Below the pieces are notes generated by a model. That model was not told the DNA's origin. It saw only the letters and a program-made list of their open reading frames with translations, and did not search any database. DNA of 62,918 bases, counting the filler, from Rhabdomonas costata (lineage: Eukaryota): the NCBI GenBank assembly GCA_019059605.1. It is 21 parts of 21 records of this genome, joined end to end, with 100 filler letters (N's around TTAATTAATTAA, not from the genome) between each part and the next. Parts side by side here need not be neighbours in the genome. Positions count along the whole stretch, not along the records: positions 48,025 to 50,916 come from JAHMHO010001799.1; 20 more parts are not named here. One strand, given 5' to 3'. The position numbers and the translations under genes are program-made. This document shows positions 8,531-50,916 of the stretch, piece by piece. Positions within the stretch are counted from its first letter, which is position 1, and every line of letters starts with the position of its first letter.

Positions 8531-9537
8531 GTATGCACTGTTGCCCTGCCTCGTCTCCTTTGACCCTTCTGCCTCCCATTATATACGCATTGTTTCCTGC
8601 TGCTGTCTTGATCCGATTTCTTTTCGATGCTCTGATTGTGAACTGGTGAAGCCATAGGAGCAACATTCATAAGCTCTCAGGTCCTTGTGGAATGCTCCTT
8701 GCGTGTGGGGTGCTGCAGGTGTCGAAGCCCACTGTGCTTTCTTCCCGAACTCCACTTCTCCGTGGCTGCCCATAATTAAAAAGCAACAGGAGACTGTCTC
8801 CAGGAGGAGGAAGGGGTGCGGCTTGTTAATTATGGGCAGCCACGGAGAAGTGGAGTTCGGGAAGAAAGCACAGTGGGCTTCGACACCCACANNNNNNNNN
8901 NNNNNNNNNNNNNNNNNNNNNNNNNNNNNNNNNNNTTAATTAATTAANNNNNNNNNNNNNNNNNNNNNNNNNNNNNNNNNNNNNNNNNNNNGGTTGTGTT
9001 TTGCCCCCTGAGTGGAAATATATTTTGTCCGCACCACCTTAAAACTGAGAGGTTTTGAAATGTCCTTCGAGAGTGTTGGAGGAAAGCAATCAGTTTTCAC
9101 GGTGGGTTGTATGCACCAAGACGAATATCGAAAACATCGAAATACAAAAGGAGGGGAGGAAAGAAGAATGGCGCACTAATAGCAATGCAACCAGATAACA
9201 CTTTTCCGAATTTCGCGATTTAGCGTTGTAGCATTGTAACATTGTAAAAAAACAAATGTGCCACGTGCGCCGCCCCCTAATCCCCTGCGAGACCAAATGA
9301 ACTCACCTCGGGAACTCTTTTGGAGACTAAACTGCACTGGCTCCTCGGATCTTAGCCGCGGAGCGCAGGGGAGCAGCCCAAGAATCCCGCACCTGCAGAA
9401 AGTAACTCGACCAAGATTTCAGAGCGTCGCGTCGCCGTAAATGTGAAAACAATTCGGTGGCATAGCGCTAATAATTTGTTTGTGCTCCCTCACTACTTCA
9501 AAACTGAGGCTCGACAATCACCTCTCGCCTTTTTCAG

Positions 9538-11818: not shown

Positions 11819-12355
11819 ACCAGGGCCACGGACACGGCTGTACCCTGAGCTGTGGTTCGCACAAACACAACTGCTTTAACACAACAACNNNNNNNNNNNN
11901 NNNNNNNNNNNNNNNNNNNNNNNNNNNNNNNNTTAATTAATTAANNNNNNNNNNNNNNNNNNNNNNNNNNNNNNNNNNNNNNNNNNNNGGTTTGGTGGTG
12001 GTGCGTGCGTGCGTGTGAGTGTCTGTGTGTGTGTGGGAGGGTATATCTGTCGACGTGTTGACCTGTTGATATTAAAAAAAAGCTGGCCGTTTGGCAGAGA
12101 AGAGAAGCAGCACACAAACGAAAGGGTTTCTCGCCCCATTGTGTTGGGCGCCAGGTGGTGGAGGACACAGAGTTTCTTTCGCGCCTTTTTGTACACGAGC
12201 CTGGGACACTGGGGGAGGCGGAGGGTCTTGGCCTGTTGTTTGGTGAACCGACACCCCACACCCCACGTCTGACGTACCCAGGCTCGTACCCAGGCTGCGC
12301 GCGTCTTAGGTTAGGGGCAACCTTTCTTTTCTTTCCATCATCGCATTCCTTCACT

Positions 12356-27075: not shown

Positions 27076-29969
27076 TGTGGTGTGTCGAGCACTCTCGTCT
27101 CCTGCTGGACGAGAGTGCTCGACGACACCGTGTGAATGTTACCAGAGAATGAGGCGTACGGAAGTGAAGATCCAATAAACAGCGTTCAAGATGAGAACGA
27201 AGGAAGTAATAATCCAGCCACATCCACACTTCTGAGTGTCGTTTTGGATGGAAGTTCAGATAAGTCAATATCCAAACCGAGTGGATGAAAGACTATATTG
27301 ATCATTCCGGATTAATGAAAAGATGATGAAAAAGAGAAAAAAGTTCAGTGGTTGGACCCAATGTGCCTTCGTTATGCAGAGGAAGGTGGGATGGGTTCAG
27401 AGAGCTTAGGGGGTTCTTCTAGACCAGAGGACTATGACATGGAAGCTGAGTACCACGTGTTTACAGAAGCATAGTTTCCAGAAGGGGACGATGTTGTGGT
27501 AGCATAACCAGAGCAGTACCATACCCGCGCAGAGCCATATCTGGAGGATGTAAGTCAAGACGGCTCATCAACTCACAGAAAAGTTCTGAGAGCATTGGCC
27601 AGAGCCATACGTGGAACCAATGGCGGTGGTGGTTTCTACCGAATCCAGAGCTTTGTGAGACCGGAGACGAGGCGGAGCGTTTCATAGAGTTACATATGAG
27701 AGCTAGTGAAATAACTGTGCAGACCGCAGTTCAGTGTCCAGAAAATTGGTGTATTGATTCACTGCGAATGCCTTTTGAGGACTTTCAACAAAATGTGGCC
27801 GATGAGAAAGGTTCACAGGACGATGCCTACGGAGAGTTAATGTTGCGTCCACTTGTGAGAAGAGATTTGTTCAGAGTTTGGTGTGGAAGAAGAAGTGAAG
27901 TTAGAGCCAACAATGTGTGTCTGTACGCCAACCCGCAGTGGATCGCCCTATCTCGCGTGCTGGCGAAAGAATGTCGTGAGAAATCTCGGCTGTGAGTGCT
28001 GGTGACTCCAGAGTGTCCATATGCACAGTGGTACTCGACGCTGAAGGAGCTGACTGTGCGAAGCCATATTTGGAATGGAGGGTTGTGCCTTGATTCGACA
28101 GGACTTTTGAGGTCAAATCCCAGTGGGTTAGAGTGGTTTTTCAACAAGAGTAAGTGTGGTTGACTGTGTAAAATAGTTTAGGGAGGACAATCCGTTGACG
28201 TTTCTTATTTGTCTTGTGCTTACATTTGTTTTCCCCTTTTAAGACAAGACAAACCTTCCAGAGCGTAGTACCCTTTCCAGACTCCAGACTCAGGTTGGGT
28301 GGAATGCTGTCAAATGTTAGGAGAGAGGATAACATGATCCAGAGTTTCTCTAGCTGGTTGTGTTTTCACAACCACTTGTAGTATTTAGCTAGCTACTTGT
28401 TTCAGAGTTCATTCATTCAGAGTCCAGTGTTCTTGAGAGGTTTGTTCATACTTTCAGAGCTTTGTGTGTGCGCGTCTGAAGTGTGGTGTTCCAGAGCGTT
28501 TTGTGGGTTGTAACTGAATTCAGAACTAATGCGCTTCCAGAGCTGTATATATGTCCCATACCACTAAACCCCGTGCACAGAAGCGTTACTTGGAAGGTAT
28601 GAACGCGTTTGTGAGGGCCAATTTACAGAATTAGTATTATGCTTGTGTGCTTTAATAAGTCCTCCACAGATTTAGATAATGTGCGAAAAGAATCTGCAAA
28701 GGTAGAAAGTACCACGAGTTGTATGAATGCAGTGCAGTGGATTTAATATCAGTAATGTCAATGACATGAAAGATAATGAAGATCACAAATCTCAACGGCA
28801 AAGCTATGCAGTGAATTAGTGTATGATGGTTTTCAATGTATATTAACAGTTAGCGACCTTGAGTACCATTCCACAAGTGTTGGGGGATCAAGCATTGGTG
28901 AAGTATGTGATGGAGGTGATTGAAAAGATAGAGGAATAGGTTATTATTTCAGAACTGTATAATATCTAGTGGTTGCTTAATGAGATTTTGAGAAGAAAAC
29001 TATTTTCCAGAGAATTTCTGTCCCAGATTCCATAGACCAGGCAGTGGGTGAAGTATGTCACTCGAGCCTCGAATCCACATCCACAGCCATCAGTTGCAAA
29101 TGCTTTGTGTAGACAGTTGTGGTCAGAGCCACGCCATCGTCTTCCACGGAAAGTGCAGTTTATAAGGGGCCGCAGATACAGTTCCAAATTTGATGTCAGC
29201 GTTAGTACAGCATTCTGTTGCGGAAACCCAGAGGGAGCGTAGCGAGACACCTGGCGCAGTCTACGAGCATACATGGGCAGGGACCAGTTCCATACCGGCG
29301 GCCAAGTTTCCCAAGCCTAAATCGAGACAGACGACCACGATTGAAGGAATTTCCACAGGCAGCAGACCGTCATCATCCACATCCACATATGAGGAGGTGG
29401 TAATTTGGGGTTGGGAAAGTGGTGGAAAGAAAGCAATGCAGACTAATTGACAAATGTGTGAAGCAACACCACCATCCACTTAATCCACAGTTCCACAGGC
29501 CGAACCCTCGAGGTCAGCTATGTCAGTACCTAGTGAAGCTGTTGCGGAGCACAAACCACACAGTTCCAGAGTCTGTAAAGAACAGGTACTGCAGACCACT
29601 TCCTGATGGAGCTTTGCCTAGAACTAAAGATGCAGAGTATTTGGAGGCTTTACGTTGGTTGATTTCAGAATATATTTTGTCAGGAAGATCCCAATCACCA
29701 AGTACGAGGTCGAAAGGTGTTTCATATGGTTGCAGGATTTGGGGACACATACCCATAGGGCGATGGACGTCCATGCAAAGGCGTTTCTGAGGAGAGCACT
29801 CAGAGAGAAGTTCCAAACAAAGATCAATGCAGAATCGTTTCTAGCCACAGAATTTGAGCTTAGAACGCTGTTGGATTCTTTGAGTTCCATAGGAGTGAAG
29901 GAACTAAACAGCAGTTGCGGAATGAGACTAATAGGCTCCAGACGCTATGTTTTACTATTCCACCAAAAC
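27076..29969 (-). mobile_element. Heavily decayed APE-type non-LTR retrotransposon (endonuclease and RT remnants)
   Basis: AT-richer contig without clean exons. Minus-strand remnants NAVLTLTS...GSDHNCL (APE end), RTVSSFSVEY, TAGWR, KAF and PLS-like words fall in LINE ORF2 order, with many stops and frameshifts. Confidence 0.55.
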
Positions 29970-31614: not shown

Positions 31615-32963
31615 ATGAATCTGGAGTGCGGTGGCGCGGATGGTGACTCGGTGCAGGTTGCGGTGCGGATGCGCGTCTTTAACGGCCGCGAGAAGGCCGC
31701 GAATGCTGAGCGCATTGTGAGAATGGAAAACTTTGACAAGGGCAGCAAGACCTACATCACTGACCCGGACACCCAAGAAGAGAAGTGTGCGCGTTGCCCG
31801 TACCAAATAAAATCTGTGATGGGTTCCTCTTTCCGTTCTAGAGCAGCGAAACTCTAGATAAACATGGCCTGCCCTCTCCGTATCATTTCTGTTGATTGGT
31901 GTGACATCCGTGTTGTTTCAGTTTCATATGGGATAAGGCATCGCAGTGGTATTTGTGCTTTTCGTTATTGTGAATTGTGCAATTACGCTGTGTGCTCCCC
32001 AGGGAGTTCAAGTATGACTTCTCGTTCCAGTCCCACTCGGACTCCGAGCCTGGAATCGGGGAATGGGCCACTCAGGACACTGTGATGCAGACCCTGGGAA
32101 TCCCCGTTCTGAACGCCGCCCTGGAGGCATGGCTGTTTCCCTCCTCCCAAACACATCTCACACCACACCGCAAGGCACCGAAACCTACCCAGAGGACCAG
32201 AGGAGCGGGGTTACCACAGCTTGAGCTACACTGGCCGGTTGGGGCCCGTACTTGTTGTGTTGGGTCTGTTTTCTTCTGTGCAGGGTCGCAATGTCTCACT
32301 GTTTGCCTACGGCCAGACAGGTGCGTCAGGGTCCCCGAAGGGTTTTGTGTTCGAGCTTTGGACGCTTCGTTTCATTCCCTTTTTTTTGCGTGGCTGAAGC
32401 GAACGTCCCCACCACTGCGTGAATCATGCTTGTTTGCACGTTGTTTTCTGGATCCGAGTTGCTCTGAACTTTTGTTGTGATTGCTTTTGCTGTAAGAGGG
32501 GTCTGGGGTCAGGAAAGGTGCCGGCTTGATTTTGGCTAGGCTCCGGAAAGAGCTTCAGCATGCTGGGCAAGGTTGGGGTCCCAGAGTTGGAGGGGATTAT
32601 TCCCCGCTCATGCCGCGAGATTTTCCGCCGCCGTGATAGTGAAACCAGTCCCCTGGTTCAGATCAACGTGGACATCCAGGTTCCTGCGTACACAGCACCG
32701 CTTTCATGCTCTCGCTGCCTCCAGCTCTCCCGCGTACTTACTTCTTCTCCCACTCCAGGTCAAATATCAAACAGAGAGCGCCAGGCCGTGCGTAAAAGCC
32801 CCCCTTCCCGTTTATGCGCTACCGATACCTTTACTTGTACCGCTATCTTCACCTCGCGCTGCAGGTGGTTGAGGTGTACTGCGAGCAGGTCAATGATCTC
32901 TTGGCTGACCGCAAGAACTGGCCCGCCAACGGGCACAAGCCCAGATTGACCCCCAAACCAACC
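31615..32963 (+). CDS. Kinesin motor (kinesin-3-like), exons 31615-31784, 32003-32126, 32284-32320, 32540-32679, 32865->
   Basis: SVQVAVRMR...EFKYDFSF...LE|GRNVSLFAYGQT|GSGKSFSM...GIIPR...|VVEVYCEQVNDLL. The P-loop is split by an intron. Confidence 0.96.
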
Positions 32964-44522: not shown

Positions 44523-45645
44523 GTATGCTTGTATTCGTACGTTATTCTTGGCCGATGGCGAAATTGAAGAACCGGGATGGAGTTTAAACCGTGTATGTTG
44601 GTGGCGGGTGGTGGTCGTGAAGGTAAAGCTTGAGGTGGTCGTAGTTGGGTTGGGTTGGTCGTAGTAAGGGTAACACTGATGTGATTTTCTTCCAAAAACG
44701 TTGCCTTTCCTTCGGAAACTTTCGTTTCTCGGCCCACCCGGGAGAAGACCAGAAGCACGCAAACTTTTCTGGTACTTGCACCATCCATTAGGATTGTGTA
44801 CAGCATTGTTGCCGTGGCAGTTCGAAGCTGCAGGTTCAGGTAGGGAGAGAGATTGAGAGAGACAGAGAGAGACAGAGAGAGAAGAATGGATGGGCAAAAA
44901 AGGTGGGAAGGGAATATAGAAAGACTAGCAGTNNNNNNNNNNNNNNNNNNNNNNNNNNNNNNNNNNNNNNNNNNNNTTAATTAATTAANNNNNNNNNNNN
45001 NNNNNNNNNNNNNNNNNNNNNNNNNNNNNNNNTGTTGGTTTTCTTTCATGATCGAAATGTGAAGACTTCTCTTGGTGAATTCATAAGAACTTGACTTTCT
45101 TTTGAATGCTCGTGCCACTTTGTGATATCGCAGTCGTGTCCAGACATCTTTTTGAAAGAGAGCGAACTGATATGAAGGTTGGCACGGATTTTTTCACACT
45201 GAAATCTGATTTCTGGTTTTCTGCGATTTGGGTGGAAGGGTGGAATTTGATGAAATTGGGCGGACACATGGGAGTTCCTGGCTGTCTGCGTCTGGGCTCC
45301 TTTGGGGACTGTGAGCTGCAGCGGGGTGGAGAATTGCAGTTGTCAATGTGGAACCGTGGTTTGTAGCTTTTGCACCGAACCCGTCCGTCTGACACGCGGA
45401 AGAAATTTGCGGAACCCTGTGTGCTGTGTTTTGCGGCACCAGCTGCACGCGCAAATAAAGCGGCTGGGCGGCGGATTAGTAGTGGGGCATGCCGTCTCCT
45501 CGCAATTGTACATTCTACGTCGACAATCCCATCTTGTAATCAGTGTCAGGGATTTTTACTTTTGGTTTCAGGCGGTCGCCTTTACATCGCTCGTACCAAT
45601 GACGGTGTCCATTTTCGTACTTTTTCTTAACAGCGTTTTCTTTCA

Positions 45646-47887
45646 ATGATGCACGTTTTGATATCATGCTTTCCTAGAGTGCTTCCAAGTGCTAGGCTTA
45701 CCCCGTCTCTCTTTCATATTTTCCTTCTTCTTTTACCATTCGTCCGAGCGGACTCTTTCGCCTCGAAAATTTCAATTACCAGCACACCCCGAACCATCGC
45801 CCTGGTGTGCGAGCAGTGTAATGAAGCCGATGTATGGTACAATGTGCTCAGCCTGCAGGCTTCCCAACTAGCGTCTGCCATCCCGGACGTTACTGTGCAG
45901 TGTTACAATGCCAGCGGCTATGCAGAAGCCCTGAGCTCAGTTCCGTTTGTTGTAGTGGCGGTTCCTGCGCTGACAACGCTGTCTCCGCTCACCACCGAAG
46001 CTGCGCGGCAAGGAGTTCCCGTTGTAGTCGCCGGGCCTTCAACTGCTGCCCCCACCCACACCACGGTACAAGTGTGGCCCAGTGCCCGGGACCTTCTTCG
46101 ATCCGCTCTGCTTGTTCTGACAAACATGGGGATCGCGGACATTGGAATTATGTATCACAACGGAAGTCTTGGGGTGTCGCTTGGCCTTGAGTTGGTGTCT
46201 CTCCTGACAGAGATGGGGCTCACGCTATGCAGCAGCTCTTCGTTTTCGGAGGCCACGGTGGTCCAGGCTGTGCAGAACTTCAGCACCACAGCGGAGCCCT
46301 TTACTTGCGCTGGGGTGATCGTGTTTGGAACCTCCGCCGAGATTGCTGCTGTGGTCAACGCTACCCTGCAGCAGCAAGCTGCGGCTCCCGAGTTTGTGGC
46401 CGTGGGACCGCAGCACTTTGTGTCTTTGCAAGGAATGCTCAGCACTACCGCGCAAGATAAGGTGTGGGTTGTGCATGAGATCCCACCCGGCACTTCAGCC
46501 TCAGTGACGGGCTGTGAGGCGCTTTCCTTGGAGTGGTGTCAGAGCGTGCTTGCTCTAGACCTGATTTCTTACGTTTTGAATTCTTCCGGCGGAGGCAGCA
46601 CTACTTTTTTGGCCTTTTTGTATTCCCTACCCTCGGATTTTACCTTGGACGAGATACCGCTGCAATTCTCGGATAGCTGCCCGGAAGCCATCTCCACGCT
46701 GTGGAGCACTCCGCTTTCCTCGGCTTCCACCGGCACCGTTTCCTCCTTTTCACTGCCGCGGTGCTGGTGTGAGGCTGGAAATTCCTCGTCTCCGATGGTC
46801 CTTCCGAAGTTCCTGGTTTTCGGACAATTGATGTCTACGCAGACTGCTGCAACCAACATCTCGGCAGGAGTGATGGCCGCCTTCGCCTCGCAAAACGCGC
46901 GCGGAGGAGTTCATGGGTATATGCTGCATGCTCTGCCGCTTCCTTTGCTTGGAATCGGGGGTGTTTCTTCCGAATCGTTGATTCGTGCCTTTATCCGACG
47001 CGGAATCCATAGCATCGTTGGCGTCTCGGGGTCCACTGGACAAGTTGTTGAAGTAGCTAGGGTGGCTGCCTCTTTGGAGGTTCCTTTGATAGGAGCTCAG
47101 TCTGGGGCTTTGGCTTTGCAGCAGCCGTATTCCCCTTTTGTGGTCAATCTTCGAGCATCGTACCGTGATGAGATTGCTGCGCAGATCACCTTTCTGCACA
47201 AATTCACCCCATACACACGGGTTTCTCTTGTGTTCCAAAATGATTCGATGGAGCAGAGCATTTTGGGAGTGGTTCAGGCCTTGTTGGTTGAAGTGGGCCT
47301 CAACCTTATCAGTAGTGCGGCGGTGCAGCCCAACGGCAGTTCCAATGCCAGCGCTTTGGCGCTGAGCGCAGTTCTTCAGGACGCTGGCCTGCTTCCCCCA
47401 GAGGTGGTCCTTGTGCACCTTGAGACTGCCCTGGCCGTGAGCCTTCTTGCCGTGGCTGCGACAGCTCTGTCCAGCTCTTGGCCTTTTTTTCTGTGCACCT
47501 CTCTGGCAAGCTTGACTCAGCTCCGGGGAAACATTCCGGCACCATTGGCGGTATTTACTACCAGCAACCTACCAGACCCGAGCCTTGGCATATCAGAGAG
47601 TTTTGTACAGAGCTATCTATCAAGTCTTCCTGACATTCTTTCTGCTGAGATGTTGTCCCTTGAGGCCTATTTTGATGCTCGATTCATGATCCAAGCGCTG
47701 CAGAGCGTTGAGGTGTCACAAATGCAGAACCGGTCGTTTCTCCCTGAGCTGCTTTCACGAGGCTTCGGAACTTTTCTTGACGGGTTCTCCACAGGTCCCT
47801 TTCATGGAGAGAATGTGAGTGGGGCTGCTTGCAACCAAGGCATGAGGGCAGTGTGGGTAATCCAGGTTTCTGGCACTGTTGGCCCGG
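45646..47887 (+). CDS. Large receptor-like ectodomain with signal peptide and tandem type-I periplasmic-binding (Venus flytrap) folds; 3'-truncated
   Basis: Open frame of about 750 codons with a hydrophobic leader, GVMAAFASQNARGGVHG, VPLIGAQSG, VVNLRASYRDE, RVSLVFQND and CNQGMRAVW. Confidence 0.8.
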
Positions 47888-48024
47888 GTATGCCCTCATG
47901 CCTTGGTTGCAAGCACCCCCCCCCNNNNNNNNNNNNNNNNNNNNNNNNNNNNNNNNNNNNNNNNNNNNTTAATTAATTAANNNNNNNNNNNNNNNNNNNN
48001 NNNNNNNNNNNNNNNNNNNNNNNN

Positions 48025-50916
48025 ACCCCGATCGCCCCCATTAGACCGGAGGTGCTGATGCGGGGCACGGACACCGGAGCAGCAACCCGACCCAAGTACA
48101 ACCCTGCGGATGCCCTTCGAGTTCCCAACGTCATCGACTTCATCTCCGAGAGGTTGTGGGGAACCCTTGCGGAGCCCTTGCCCCCGCTGCCGAAGTCCCT
48201 CGCCGGGAAGTGGAGAGGCAAGGTTGGGGTTCCCCGTGCGCTGGGCATGTGGGAGGACTTCCCGATGTGGCGTGTCTTCCTGCACCACCTGCGGTACAAG
48301 GTTGTGCTCTCTGGGCATTCCACGGCGGAACTCTTTGCGCAGGGCCTGGAGACGATCCCCTCGGATGTGATTTGCCTGCCAGCGAAGCTGCTTGGGGGGC
48401 ACATCATGAGCCTGTTGCGCACGGCCAAGTCTCGCCCCATGGACTTCATCTTCATGCCCTCCATCATCAAAAAGGGCTTGGAGGATCCCCTTGCCAACGA
48501 TGGGTTCAATTGTGGAATGGTTGCCAGCTGGGCTGAAGTGGTGCGAAACAACCTTCCAGGGGTCAGCTATACTCAGGAGGCGGAGTTCCCTCACAGGAAC
48601 ATCCTGAAGCTGAAGAAGAAGGAAGCTTCGGAGGACGAGGATTCCACCGGAGAGCTTCCCTTGATTGTGACTCCGGTGGTATTCACGCACTCCCTGGAGG
48701 CCATGGTCACTCCTCTGATGGAGGTTTTCCAGCATGTCGACCACTCAATTACCCGAGAGGAGATTCTTGAGGGGCTCATGCTTGGTCAAGCTGCGCAGAA
48801 GCGGTTCAAGGCGGACATTGTTGCGGAAGGGCAGCGCGCGATCTCGTGGGCCAAGGAGCACAACACCTTTGCGGTGGCCCTTGTGGGGCACCCCTACCAC
48901 TCCGACCATTTTGTGAATCACGGCTTGGGGGACGTGATTGCCTCCCTGGGGCACCCTGTAGTCGTGGAGAGGTGTCTGGCGGAAAAGGGCTTTTCTTACT
49001 TGGCCAAGTATCGCCCTCTGCGGATCCAGGACCAGTGGCCAAACATCACCCGAATCTTCGCGACGGCAGCGTACGTTGCGAACAGTTCGGATCCCATCGA
49101 GATGGTCCACGTCACTTCATTTGGCTGTGGCCTCGACGCCGTGGTTAATGACCAAGTCCGGGACATCGCCGAGTCCACGGGCAAGCTTTACATGCAAGTG
49201 AAGATTGACGAGATGAGCAACCTGGGTCCTGCCACTGTGCGAGTCCGCTCCCTAATTGCAGCCGTGAAGGCCAAGAAGCAGCCCACGGGCGGCTCAGCAG
49301 CAGGCGAAGCTCCTTCCGAGGCACCCTTCGATGTGGTGCCCAAGTCGGATTGTTCAGAGCCGGCGGAGAGCCTCTTTGACAAAGCTGCTGGGCGGCGGCA
49401 CGTGCCATGGAAACACAGCGCGATGTCGAACGAGTACGTCGTTTTGATCTCACCGCCCTCGATCCAGAACACGGAGCTAGCGTGTCATGCGATGCGGGGA
49501 ATCGACGGTTACCTTGTTATGACTCTTGATAAGCTGGACGATGACATCATGAGAGGAGGACAGCGCAGCATGCCTCAGGACATGTGCCTGCCTTGTCATG
49601 CCTTCTTTGGGATGTACCTGGACGCAATGAATCGTCTGAAGCAAGATGGATACAAGGTTGTTGGTGTTGCTGTTTGTCTCCTGCATCCGATTCTTTTGAT
49701 TCTTGTGGGCTTTCGACAATTTTGAGAAACGGGGACTCTCCACGGATGCACAACTGAGCTCCAAGCGTTTCAACAGATTTTGTGTGTATGTTCCCTGCGC
49801 TTCCTGTTCCTCCTTTTTCCAATTTCAGGTAGCGATGGGTACAGCTCAGATCCCGAACTCTTGCCGCGGGGGCAACTTCATTGGCATCTTTCTTCGGGGC
49901 CTGCAGAGGTCAGGGTATGGGGAGATCCCGTGGTGCAGCTGGTTCAGCAATGACCACGCCTTCCTGAAAATGCAGCTCTTGAGCCCTCTGTGCCTGTCGA
50001 AAGTTCTACTGGGGTCGTACTTTGCTGACCTCTTCAACAGGGTACTCTGTCGGACTCGGCCGTACGAGAAAGTCCCAGGTTCCGCGGAAGCCTTAGCGGA
50101 GCACCTGAAGCAGACCAAACTCGTTCCGTTCCTGTGCGATGGCTCCGGGCTTGGGTTTGCAACCTTCCGAAGGCTGATCTTCGAGATCGTGCAGGCCTTC
50201 GACGATCTTGAGCTGGACGAGAGCGGGCCCTCGCGGCCCAAGGTCGGGCTGCTGGGGGATGCCGTGGTGCAGTTCTGTGACCCAATCAATCGCTTCCTGA
50301 TTCGACAGGTGGAGCAGGAGGGAGGCGAGCTCGTGCCTTGCGACTTCATGAACTCCTTCTACTACCTTTGGGAGCAGCCTATTGTGAATGCGCAGCGGTT
50401 TGGGTCCTCGAAGCTTGTCGCTGCGTTCTGCCAGATCGCCCTGAAAGCCCAGGAGTACCTGCGGCAGCCGCTGCTTGACGCCCTGAGCGGCTCCAAGCGA
50501 TTTGACCGACCCCCTACCCACCATGAGCTGTGCACCGTGGAGCCCGTTATCGACCGAGCGAACTTCTTTGGCGATGGATGGATCCTGAGCGCGGAGATGG
50601 CCTTCAAGCTTGGCCCGGAGGGAGTGCGCAACCTCTTGGTGGTCCAGTCGTGGGGGTGCATGGGAAACCAGCTCGGGGGCCGGGGCTTCTTCAAGAGAGC
50701 CAAATCGCTGTACCCGGACTGCAACCTTGCGGCGATTGATTACGACCCGGCGATCAGCGAGACGAACATCCTGAACCGGCTGCGGTTGTTTATGGCGAAC
50801 GCGCAACGCCTAGAGGCCATGCGCAGGGCGATGAAGCCCAGGTGCCCGCTGGTTTCGATGCCTTCCACCGCTTCCTCAGGCCACTGCGCCGAGCACGTCC
50901 ATCATCAACCCACCCC
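48025..50916 (+). CDS. Bacterial-type 2-hydroxyacyl-CoA dehydratase/activase-related protein (DUF2229-type region plus dehydratase-like C-terminus), partial; intron 49657-49828
   Basis: KVGVPRALGMWEDFP, ETIPSDVICLPAK, GHPYHSD, TSFGCGLDAV, KIDEMSNLG, DMCLP, CRGGNFIG, RTRPYE, GDGWIL, QSWGCM, IDYDPAISETNILNRL. Confidence 0.88.

Follow-up and report, generated by a model that had tools for sequence, protein, structure and literature searches.

A probable PlsA/Ger-type ether-lipid synthase gene fragment with a spliceosomal-type intron in an assembly of Rhabdomonas costata

By the textbook account, plasmalogens are synthesized by two distinct routes: eukaryotes use a peroxisomal one that depends on O2, and anaerobic bacteria a reductive one that runs through PlsA/PlsR. 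Here we describe a gene fragment from the protist Rhabdomonas costata (assembly GCA_019059605.1) that probably belongs to the enzyme type of the second route. It lies at positions 48025-50916 (plus strand) of a 62,918-nt stretch of DNA, hereafter the window, and comprises the 3′ ~60% of the gene. According to the available text of the cited papers, PlsA is a plasmalogen synthase and both PlsA and its relative Ger act on membrane glycerolipids, with activities demonstrated by expression in E. coli (PMC13159169, PMC9702350, PMC12838417). PlsA and PlsR are found in C. perfringens, and single-gene plsA of 4248-4920 bp in E. faecalis, L. cremoris and B. longum (PMC9702350, PMC12838417). The fused architecture denoted 'BBD...' is that of Ger, a 'modified PlsA' or glycerol ester reductase (PMC13159169, section 10), whose expression in E. 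coli yielded 1-O-alkylglycerols only under anoxia (Sahonero-Canavesi et al., PMC13159169).

We consider the fragment more probably than otherwise part of a nuclear gene acquired laterally from anaerobic bacteria and encoding an O2-independent ether-lipid synthase of the PlsA/Ger type; the gene would have gained its intron and the codon usage of its host since the transfer.

Gene structure and conserved cysteines

The window is not one contiguous locus: it consists of 21 pieces of 2885-3017 nt each, joined by 20 identical artificial spacers (44 N, TTAATTAATTAA, 44 N). The gene fills one whole assembly piece of 2892 nt, flanked by the spacers at 47925-48024 and 50917-51016, and tblastn with seven homologues confined the family match within the window to this piece. 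Its 906 open codons contain no stop and fall into two exons. Exon 1 (48025-49656, 544 codons) extends to the piece start and ends in phase 0. Exon 2 begins at 49829 and reaches the position of the bacterial C-terminus at 50833; its frame stays open to the piece end (49829-50916, 362 codons plus 2 nt), leaving an extension of 27 open codons (50834-50916) past that position with no stop before the piece ends.

The two exons are separated by a 172-nt intron (49657-49828) with GT-AG boundaries (AAG/GTTGTT...TTTCAG/G) and a polypyrimidine tract. It shifts the frame by +1, and translation continued into it from exon 1 ends at a stop after 26 codons. Its guanine-cytosine content (GC) is 0.46 and its T content 0.38, compared with 0.59 and 0.21 in the exons. 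The splice junction (...QDGYK / VAMGTAQ...) aligns gap-free with 12 of 12 full-length bacterial homologues, and BLASTP bridges it with a single high-scoring segment pair, in which aa 29-879 align with residues 644-1417 of a Butyrivibrio-type protein of 1417 aa (32% identity, E ~1e-134). The spliced protein matched all full-length homologues in this search (156/156). In tblastn, the seven homologues gave two blocks that break at the intron, the second starting at 49826 or 49829 for five bacterial queries. Judged by these features, the intron appears to be a genuine one of the spliceosomal type.

A second split gene in the window offers a comparison. A kinesin motor gene with short exons (32285-32950, plus strand) contains two GT-AG introns, one of 219 nt (32321-32539, CAG/GTGCGT...CTAG/G) and one of 185 nt (32680-32864, CAG/GTTCCT...GCAG/G), whose removal restores the GQTGSGKS P-loop and an open, kinesin-like frame. 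The 172-nt intron resembles both of them in size class and in the style of its boundaries (GT...AG/G), and the split kinesin gene indicates that the assembly derives from an intron-rich eukaryote. Long open reading frames (ORFs) on the antisense strand or in alternative frames over the gene had no Pfam match (0 of 4) and were set aside as by-products of coding sequence rich in GC at third codon positions (GC3).

Homology to the bacterial proteins starts at residue ~33 (VPNVIDF...) and ends at aa 879 (nt 50833), where those proteins end. The fragment thus covers two reductase modules and the linker between them, collinear to the bacterial C-terminus. Reductase module 1 (Red1, 48121-49278) includes the Pfam domain DUF2229 (PF09989) at 48220-48975, matched with E = 8.8e-54 and 182.8 bits over aa 66-317 and model positions 1-217 of 218. 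A low-complexity linker (49279-49422, aa 419-466), unconserved and gapped against the homologues, leads into reductase module 2 (Red2), the PlsR-equivalent, which starts at 49423-49656 with a weak second DUF2229 match near Cys521 (E = 0.07) and continues through exon 2. Red1 carries Cys117 (48373-48375, motif ICLPAK), Cys163 (48511-48513, FNCG) and Cys368 (49126-49128, FGCG). Red2 carries Cys521 (49585-49587, MCLP) and, in exon 2, Cys556 (49862-49864, SCRG) and Cys821 (50657-50659, WGCM). With their codons verified, these six correspond to six columns with 95-100% conservation across 66 non-redundant relatives from bacteria, and the window protein is identical at 59 of the 80 columns that are at least 90% conserved in the family. 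An initial annotation of this DNA had described about 900 codons, a frame-restoring 172-nt GT-AG intron and the same six cysteine motifs; all of this stands, the intron to the nucleotide and every motif on a family-conserved cysteine column.

Ahead of Red1, the first 32 codons (48025-48120) are open, GC3-rich by eye and free of cysteines, with no significant homology. A reading of the first ~30 residues as the tail of a second ATPase domain was rejected (profile score -0.4 bits, 4 of 500 shuffles as good).

Family assignment and competing functions

The bacterial relatives are fusions of ~1400-1650 aa in which two BcrAD_BadFG domains precede DUF2229; in the three relatives tested, DUF2229 was matched over two stretches. 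The named relatives belong to Coriobacteriales including Collinsella, Eggerthellaceae, Propionibacteriaceae, Actinomycetaceae, Lachnospiraceae, Peptostreptococcaceae and Tissierellia, and their orders are all among the pls carriers listed in the available text of a review (PMC9702350). At 18 taxonomically diverse bacterial loci, the neighbours of the homologous gene are unrelated housekeeping genes. In two of the 18, from Syntrophomonas and Mobiluncus genomes, a divergent TetR regulator lies directly upstream (L030:2193-2795 and L059:2241-2849, both on the minus strand), which is the arrangement reported for pls genes, as for E. faecalis pls (PMC9702350). Characterised members (Q8XL48/Q8XL47, Q835P9, AGL49404 and SHJ90043) are known here by description, and the published criterion for similarity to Ger is a DIAMOND E-value ≤1e-50 with coverage ≥30% against Ger.

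The initial annotation had instead named the gene a 2-hydroxyacyl-coenzyme A (CoA) dehydratase/activase and attributed to it a pathway that ferments amino acids or lactate. Some bacterial relatives bear database names that agree with this, such as '2-hydroxyacyl-CoA dehydratase', and so does the predicted fold. An AlphaFold2 model of exon 1, built on a 30-sequence alignment, reached a predicted local distance difference test score (pLDDT) of 79.5 and a predicted template modelling score (pTM) of 0.77; pLDDT was mostly >85 in Red1 and <50 at residues 1-29 and 422-466. Foldseek returned 13 matches in the PDB at E ≤1e-3. Those listed are HadB/C, MbdON and double-cubane cluster protein (DCCP), except 3l9w_A (KefC, probability 0.84). 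The best of them, the beta and alpha subunits of 2-hydroxyisocaproyl-CoA dehydratase, the benzoyl-CoA-reductase-type MbdON and the double-cubane cluster protein, had a probability of 1.00, yet identities of 9-12% and template modelling (TM) scores of 0.37-0.53 by target. For (R)-2-hydroxyisocaproyl-CoA dehydratase (3O3M/N/O) the E-value was 2.6e-5 and the TM score 0.53 by target. By its modelled fold, the window protein would be a distant relative of the radical-enzyme superfamily of benzoyl-CoA reductase (BCR), 2-hydroxyacyl-CoA dehydratase (HAD) and DCCP.

Within that superfamily, however, the dehydratase identity receives little from the sequence. Identity to HadB/C is ~10%, and the protein is equally similar to BCR and DCCP. 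HGD-D (PF06050) was found in neither exon at E ≤0.01 nor in exon 2 or aa 326-544 at E ≤10, and it is absent too from the three bacterial relatives tested. A PDB sequence search gave no match at E ≤1 for either exon, and NCBIfam no family for either. True 2-hydroxyacyl-CoA dehydratase genes adjoin genes for CoA-transferase and acyl-CoA dehydrogenase/electron-transfer flavoprotein (ETF). None of the 103 neighbour ORFs at the 18 bacterial loci encodes a CoA-transferase, acyl-CoA dehydrogenase, ETF or HGD-D protein, and lipids are the substrates of those proteins of the fused architecture that have been characterised. A dehydratase/activase that supports fermentation is very improbable on this evidence. 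What survives of the initial annotation is the superfamily, which was right by fold; the family was not, and the fermentation pathway is not supported. The profile search that had been proposed with it recovered DUF2229, but neither HGD-D nor BcrAD_BadFG was matched by Pfam within the fragment, and the proposed search for partner genes, run on the bacterial loci, came back empty.

Several observations weigh against a PlsA/Ger-type synthase as well. The assignment draws on architecture, taxonomy and published descriptions, the sequences compared being those of uncharacterised relatives only. The window protein shares only 24-43% identity with any relative, and its terminal branch has 4-5 times the median length, which together make a change of substrate possible. 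The ATPase half had no match anywhere in the window when seven full-length homologues were searched with tblastn; neither this half nor the start codon nor the stop codon is on the gene piece. Bacterial relatives carry a CxxCxNxC...GNRC linker between their ATPase and reductase halves, each cysteine of which is 98% conserved (n = 66); from the last of them to the first conserved block downstream there are about a dozen residues. The linker is not present in the 32 residues ahead of this block in the window protein, whose linker could have been lost or displaced onto an upstream exon. In addition, the available text of two papers describes homologue-carrying bacteria that make no ether lipids under the conditions tested (PMC13159169, PMC12838417). 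Finally, PlsA and Ger are indistinguishable for the window protein. A preprint ties a second reduction domain to the plasmalogen type of plsA/plsR (10.64898/2026.06.23.733905, available text), so the presence of a second reductase module leans towards PlsA; Ger of T. maritima also spans both regions, and we therefore do not commit to either.

The four-cysteine linker is unmentioned in the available literature text on the family. In bacteria, it may bind an additional metal site through which electrons pass from one half to the other.

A member of the same fused family could also have changed its substrate and act as an ATP-driven low-potential Fe-S reductase elsewhere than on the glycerolipid sn-1 ester. 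The very long branch (1.65-3.3 versus a median of 0.41-0.68), identity at only 59 of 80 conserved columns and the linker absent from the fragment would fit such a change, and the superfamily includes small-molecule reductases such as DCCP (PMC9351452, PMC7317905, available text). Full collinearity to the C-terminus and retention of all six Red-module cysteines speak for the ancestral function instead, and the available text of the literature examined gives no other function for the fused architecture. We regard a changed substrate as unlikely. Improbable, too, is a decaying or non-functional relic of a transferred gene. The absence of the linker and of a stop codon, the long branch and the fragmentary state of the gene could be read as decay, but the 906 codons hold no stop, codon bias is strong (GC3 0.75), identity is kept at 59 of the 80 conserved columns, all six cluster cysteines remain and the fold is modelled with confidence, all of which speaks against a relic. 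A functional PlsA/Ger-type synthase, presumably expressed and preceded by an ATPase half encoded upstream of the piece, is the reading we retain.

Eukaryotic residence and origin of the gene

To place the gene in a genome, we compared its composition with that of other ORFs in the window and of bacterial homologue genes. Compared with the pool of seven long ORFs taken from other pieces, the relative synonymous codon usage of the gene gave a correlation of r = 0.774; each of the seven against the pool of the others gave r = 0.48-0.76. The matching part of 80 bacterial homologue genes reached at most r = 0.596 against the same pool (median 0.46). The observed/expected ratio of CpG dinucleotides was 0.80 in the gene and 0.63-0.77 in the host ORFs, compared with at least 0.94 (median 1.16) in the 44 bacterial homologue genes with GC >0.52. 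Together with the intron, the host-like codon usage and CpG depletion suggest that the gene resides in a eukaryotic genome.

The sequences at the piece ends bear on the question of contamination. A G/T-only run of at least 9 nt opens 16 of the 21 pieces and a C/A-only run of at least 9 nt closes 15 of them (for example 8992-9003, 11878-11888 and 50906-50916), compared with an internal rate of such runs of 0.8%. These runs resemble what we take to be remnants of self-inert, G/T-degenerate primers for whole-genome amplification. If they are, the sample was of low input, contamination by foreign DNA has to be reckoned with, and some of the terminal ~10-15 nt of each piece may be non-genomic. The gene piece has the 3′ C/A run (11 nt) and lacks the 5′ G/T run, and its final 11 nt may thus be primer-derived.

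Contamination by a bacterium, or an artefact in assembling an amplified library of low input, could further appeal to two features of the gene piece: it is linked to no other piece, and by di- and tetranucleotide signature only one of the 21 pieces deviates more. The latter also counts against a eukaryotic gene, although we discount this test because the gene piece is ~94% coding and the other pieces are mostly non-coding. As the pieces are unlinked, the sequence flanking the gene piece is uninformative on contamination, and any inference across a spacer is invalid. What opposes contamination lies within the gene itself: a canonical intron stands exactly where homology demands it, and codon usage and CpG content are unlike those of all 80 bacterial homologue genes. 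Furthermore, no relative exceeded 43% identity among 2014 matches (E ≤1e-3) in 1.84 billion cluster representatives, and a search of 185,579 species genomes of bacteria and archaea gave 303 confirmed loci, the best 80 of which were 29-36% identical, with no bacterium above 36%. With no close bacterial sequence found, there is no candidate contaminant, and we hold contamination to be highly improbable.

Lateral transfer from bacteria into a eukaryote is accordingly the best reading of a bacterial-type enzyme whose gene appears to have a genuine intron and host-like codon usage and CpG content, and whose named close relatives are all bacterial and at most 43% identical. The initial annotation had reached the same view of the origin and had dismissed contamination on account of the intron. 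The codon usage and CpG depletion add to this argument; an argument from surrounding sequence is void, because the pieces are unlinked. Overall, the gene is solidly supported as real and laterally acquired; the limit is that of a 2.9-kb fragment whose function is assigned by analogy.

Homologues without functional annotation were found in two further eukaryotes in EukProt: Mastigamoeba balamuthi P014131 (1548 aa) and Mastigella eilhardi P014525 (1390 aa). Both are full-length and labelled only 'hypothetical' or by a Trinity ID. Mastigamoeba and Mastigella are anaerobic Archamoebae. The M. balamuthi protein contains two BcrAD_BadFG domains and DUF2229, keeps the four-cysteine linker, and has in its record an mRNA span (r:62883-68525) longer than its coding length. 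Its best relative is the M. eilhardi protein (39% identity, E ~1e-202; best bacterium ~1e-149), and the two form a clade of their own with a Shimodaira-Hasegawa-like approximate likelihood ratio test (SH-aLRT) support of 100.

The relationship of the window protein to these two is less clear. In a first tree, M. balamuthi P014131 was one of the long-branch neighbours. The window protein is 24-30% identical to the Archamoebae proteins, compared with 31-34% to Clostridia, and shares six exclusive residues with the former, within the range of one to ten seen in nine control pairs. In the free tree it stands apart, without support, on a branch of 3.3 substitutions per site. In the approximately unbiased (AU) test, a single eukaryotic clade obtained p-AU = 0.63, the constrained tree lying 3.97 log-likelihood units above a quick free search, and long-branch attraction may contribute to this outcome. 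From these alignments, a single eukaryotic clade would be compatible with the data, not being rejected by the AU test, yet it gains no positive support. For the donor lineage, trees of 85, 40 and 35 rows gave no supported sister.

The remaining pieces of the window carry features unrelated to the PlsA/Ger-type gene: a short-chain dehydrogenase ORF (18934-19782, plus strand), a gene for a protein with three zf-C2HC_2 fingers (21410-22795, minus strand) and a cation-efflux exon fragment (13516-13860, minus strand). An uninterrupted ORF of 764 codons (45631-47922, plus strand) encodes a Peripla_BP_6/ANF_receptor ligand-binding protein with a single weak relative among 5.8 billion proteins (30% identity, E = 2e-10), and this near-orphan status suggests a lineage that has been little sampled. 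Among 65 further ORFs of the window, a Pfam scan identified kinesin and cation-efflux fragments only, and Rfam and tRNA scans of the window gave no match. In composition, the piece 27076-29969 stands furthest from the rest of the 21 (GC 0.453; mean r of tetranucleotides 0.37 versus 0.62-0.70), and it contains a perfect inverted repeat just past its G/T run; it may be of different origin (organelle, symbiont or repeat). Another piece opens with a 73-nt G/T-only microsatellite (23959-24031), (TTTG)n followed by (TG)n, which is longer than the primer-like runs.

Proposed chemistry and comparison with known systems

Two homologous modules with three invariant cysteines each, and a BCR/HAD-type fold in the model, are the features of the fragment on which a mechanism can be built; the steps themselves are proposed from analogy to other family members. 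A pair of ASKHA ATPase ('activase') domains at the N-terminus, presumably encoded off the piece, would hydrolyze ATP to inject a low-potential electron into Fe-S clusters. Each reductase module would hold its cluster by a cysteine triad, C117/C163/C368 in Red1 and C521/C556/C821 in Red2. Two one-electron steps would then reduce the sn-1 ester carbonyl of a glycerophospholipid, and protonation and dehydration would come after them, a sequence summarised in the available text of PMC8788747. The product would be a vinyl ether, that is a plasmalogen (PlsA type), or, after further reduction, an alkyl ether (Ger type), in either case formed without O2.

Such an enzyme would bear on plasmalogen synthesis in anaerobic eukaryotes. 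A review by Goldfine reports that dihydroxyacetone phosphate (DHAP) is not the plasmalogen precursor in two anaerobic protozoa and, in its available text, names no gene; the finding places the divide between aerobic and anaerobic organisms rather than between eukaryotes and prokaryotes (PMC9702350). The aerobic plasmalogen pathway is absent from Archamoebae and Metamonada according to a 2026 study in the Proceedings of the National Academy of Sciences, the available text of which does not mention PlsA (PMC13012113). No paper in the literature searched ties PlsA/Ger to any eukaryote, Jackson 2021 and the supplements of the Ger paper, with their possible eukaryotic matches, being outside its scope. 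Within that literature, the enzyme family is known and a eukaryotic, intron-bearing, host-adapted member is undescribed.

Tentatively, and with some doubt, we propose that the window gene and the archamoebal copies may represent the missing enzyme of plasmalogen synthesis in anaerobic protozoa that manage without the DHAP/O2 pathway. The bacterial reductive synthase would have been borrowed repeatedly and would replace the O2-dependent PEDS1 route that Archamoebae and Metamonada lack. The window gene and the Mastigamoeba and Mastigella copies provide a concrete and cheaply testable candidate for this function, and a clean example of an oxygen-sensitive radical enzyme acquired by eukaryotes. 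They also illustrate how automatic '2-hydroxyacyl-CoA dehydratase' names on a PlsA/Ger-type family mislead metabolic reconstruction.

Among the described systems, PlsA and the PlsA-PlsR pair of C. perfringens (CPE1194-1195) are matched by the window protein in layout, a DUF2229 module followed by a PlsR-equivalent that runs to the C-terminus, with three invariant cysteines in each. Single-gene plsA resembles the relatives of the window protein in length (4248-4920 bp) and in the bacterial orders that carry it. In contrast to PlsA, the window gene is eukaryotic and intron-bearing and is without the four-cysteine linker in the fragment, and no ATPase half is seen on the piece. The protein is also more distant: its best bacterial relatives are ~32% identical to it, compared with identities of 41-55% among characterised PlsAs (PMC12838417, available text). 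With Ger of Thermotoga maritima and Desulfatibacillum alkenivorans, the window protein shares the family and the domain logic of the 'BBD...' architecture. Ger makes sn-1 alkyl ethers only under anoxia (PMC13159169, available text), and the product of the Ger type is a saturated alkyl ether, not a vinyl ether.

The 2-hydroxyacyl-CoA dehydratases HgdAB and HadBC, the class I benzoyl-CoA reductases and the double-cubane cluster proteins also share the fold modelled for the reductase module, and the logic common to the family is that ASKHA activases inject electrons at the expense of ATP (PMC12838417, available text). These enzymes, at ~10% identity to the window protein, work as separate subunits on CoA thioesters or small molecules, whereas the PlsA/Ger family combines the functions in one fused polypeptide that acts on lipids.

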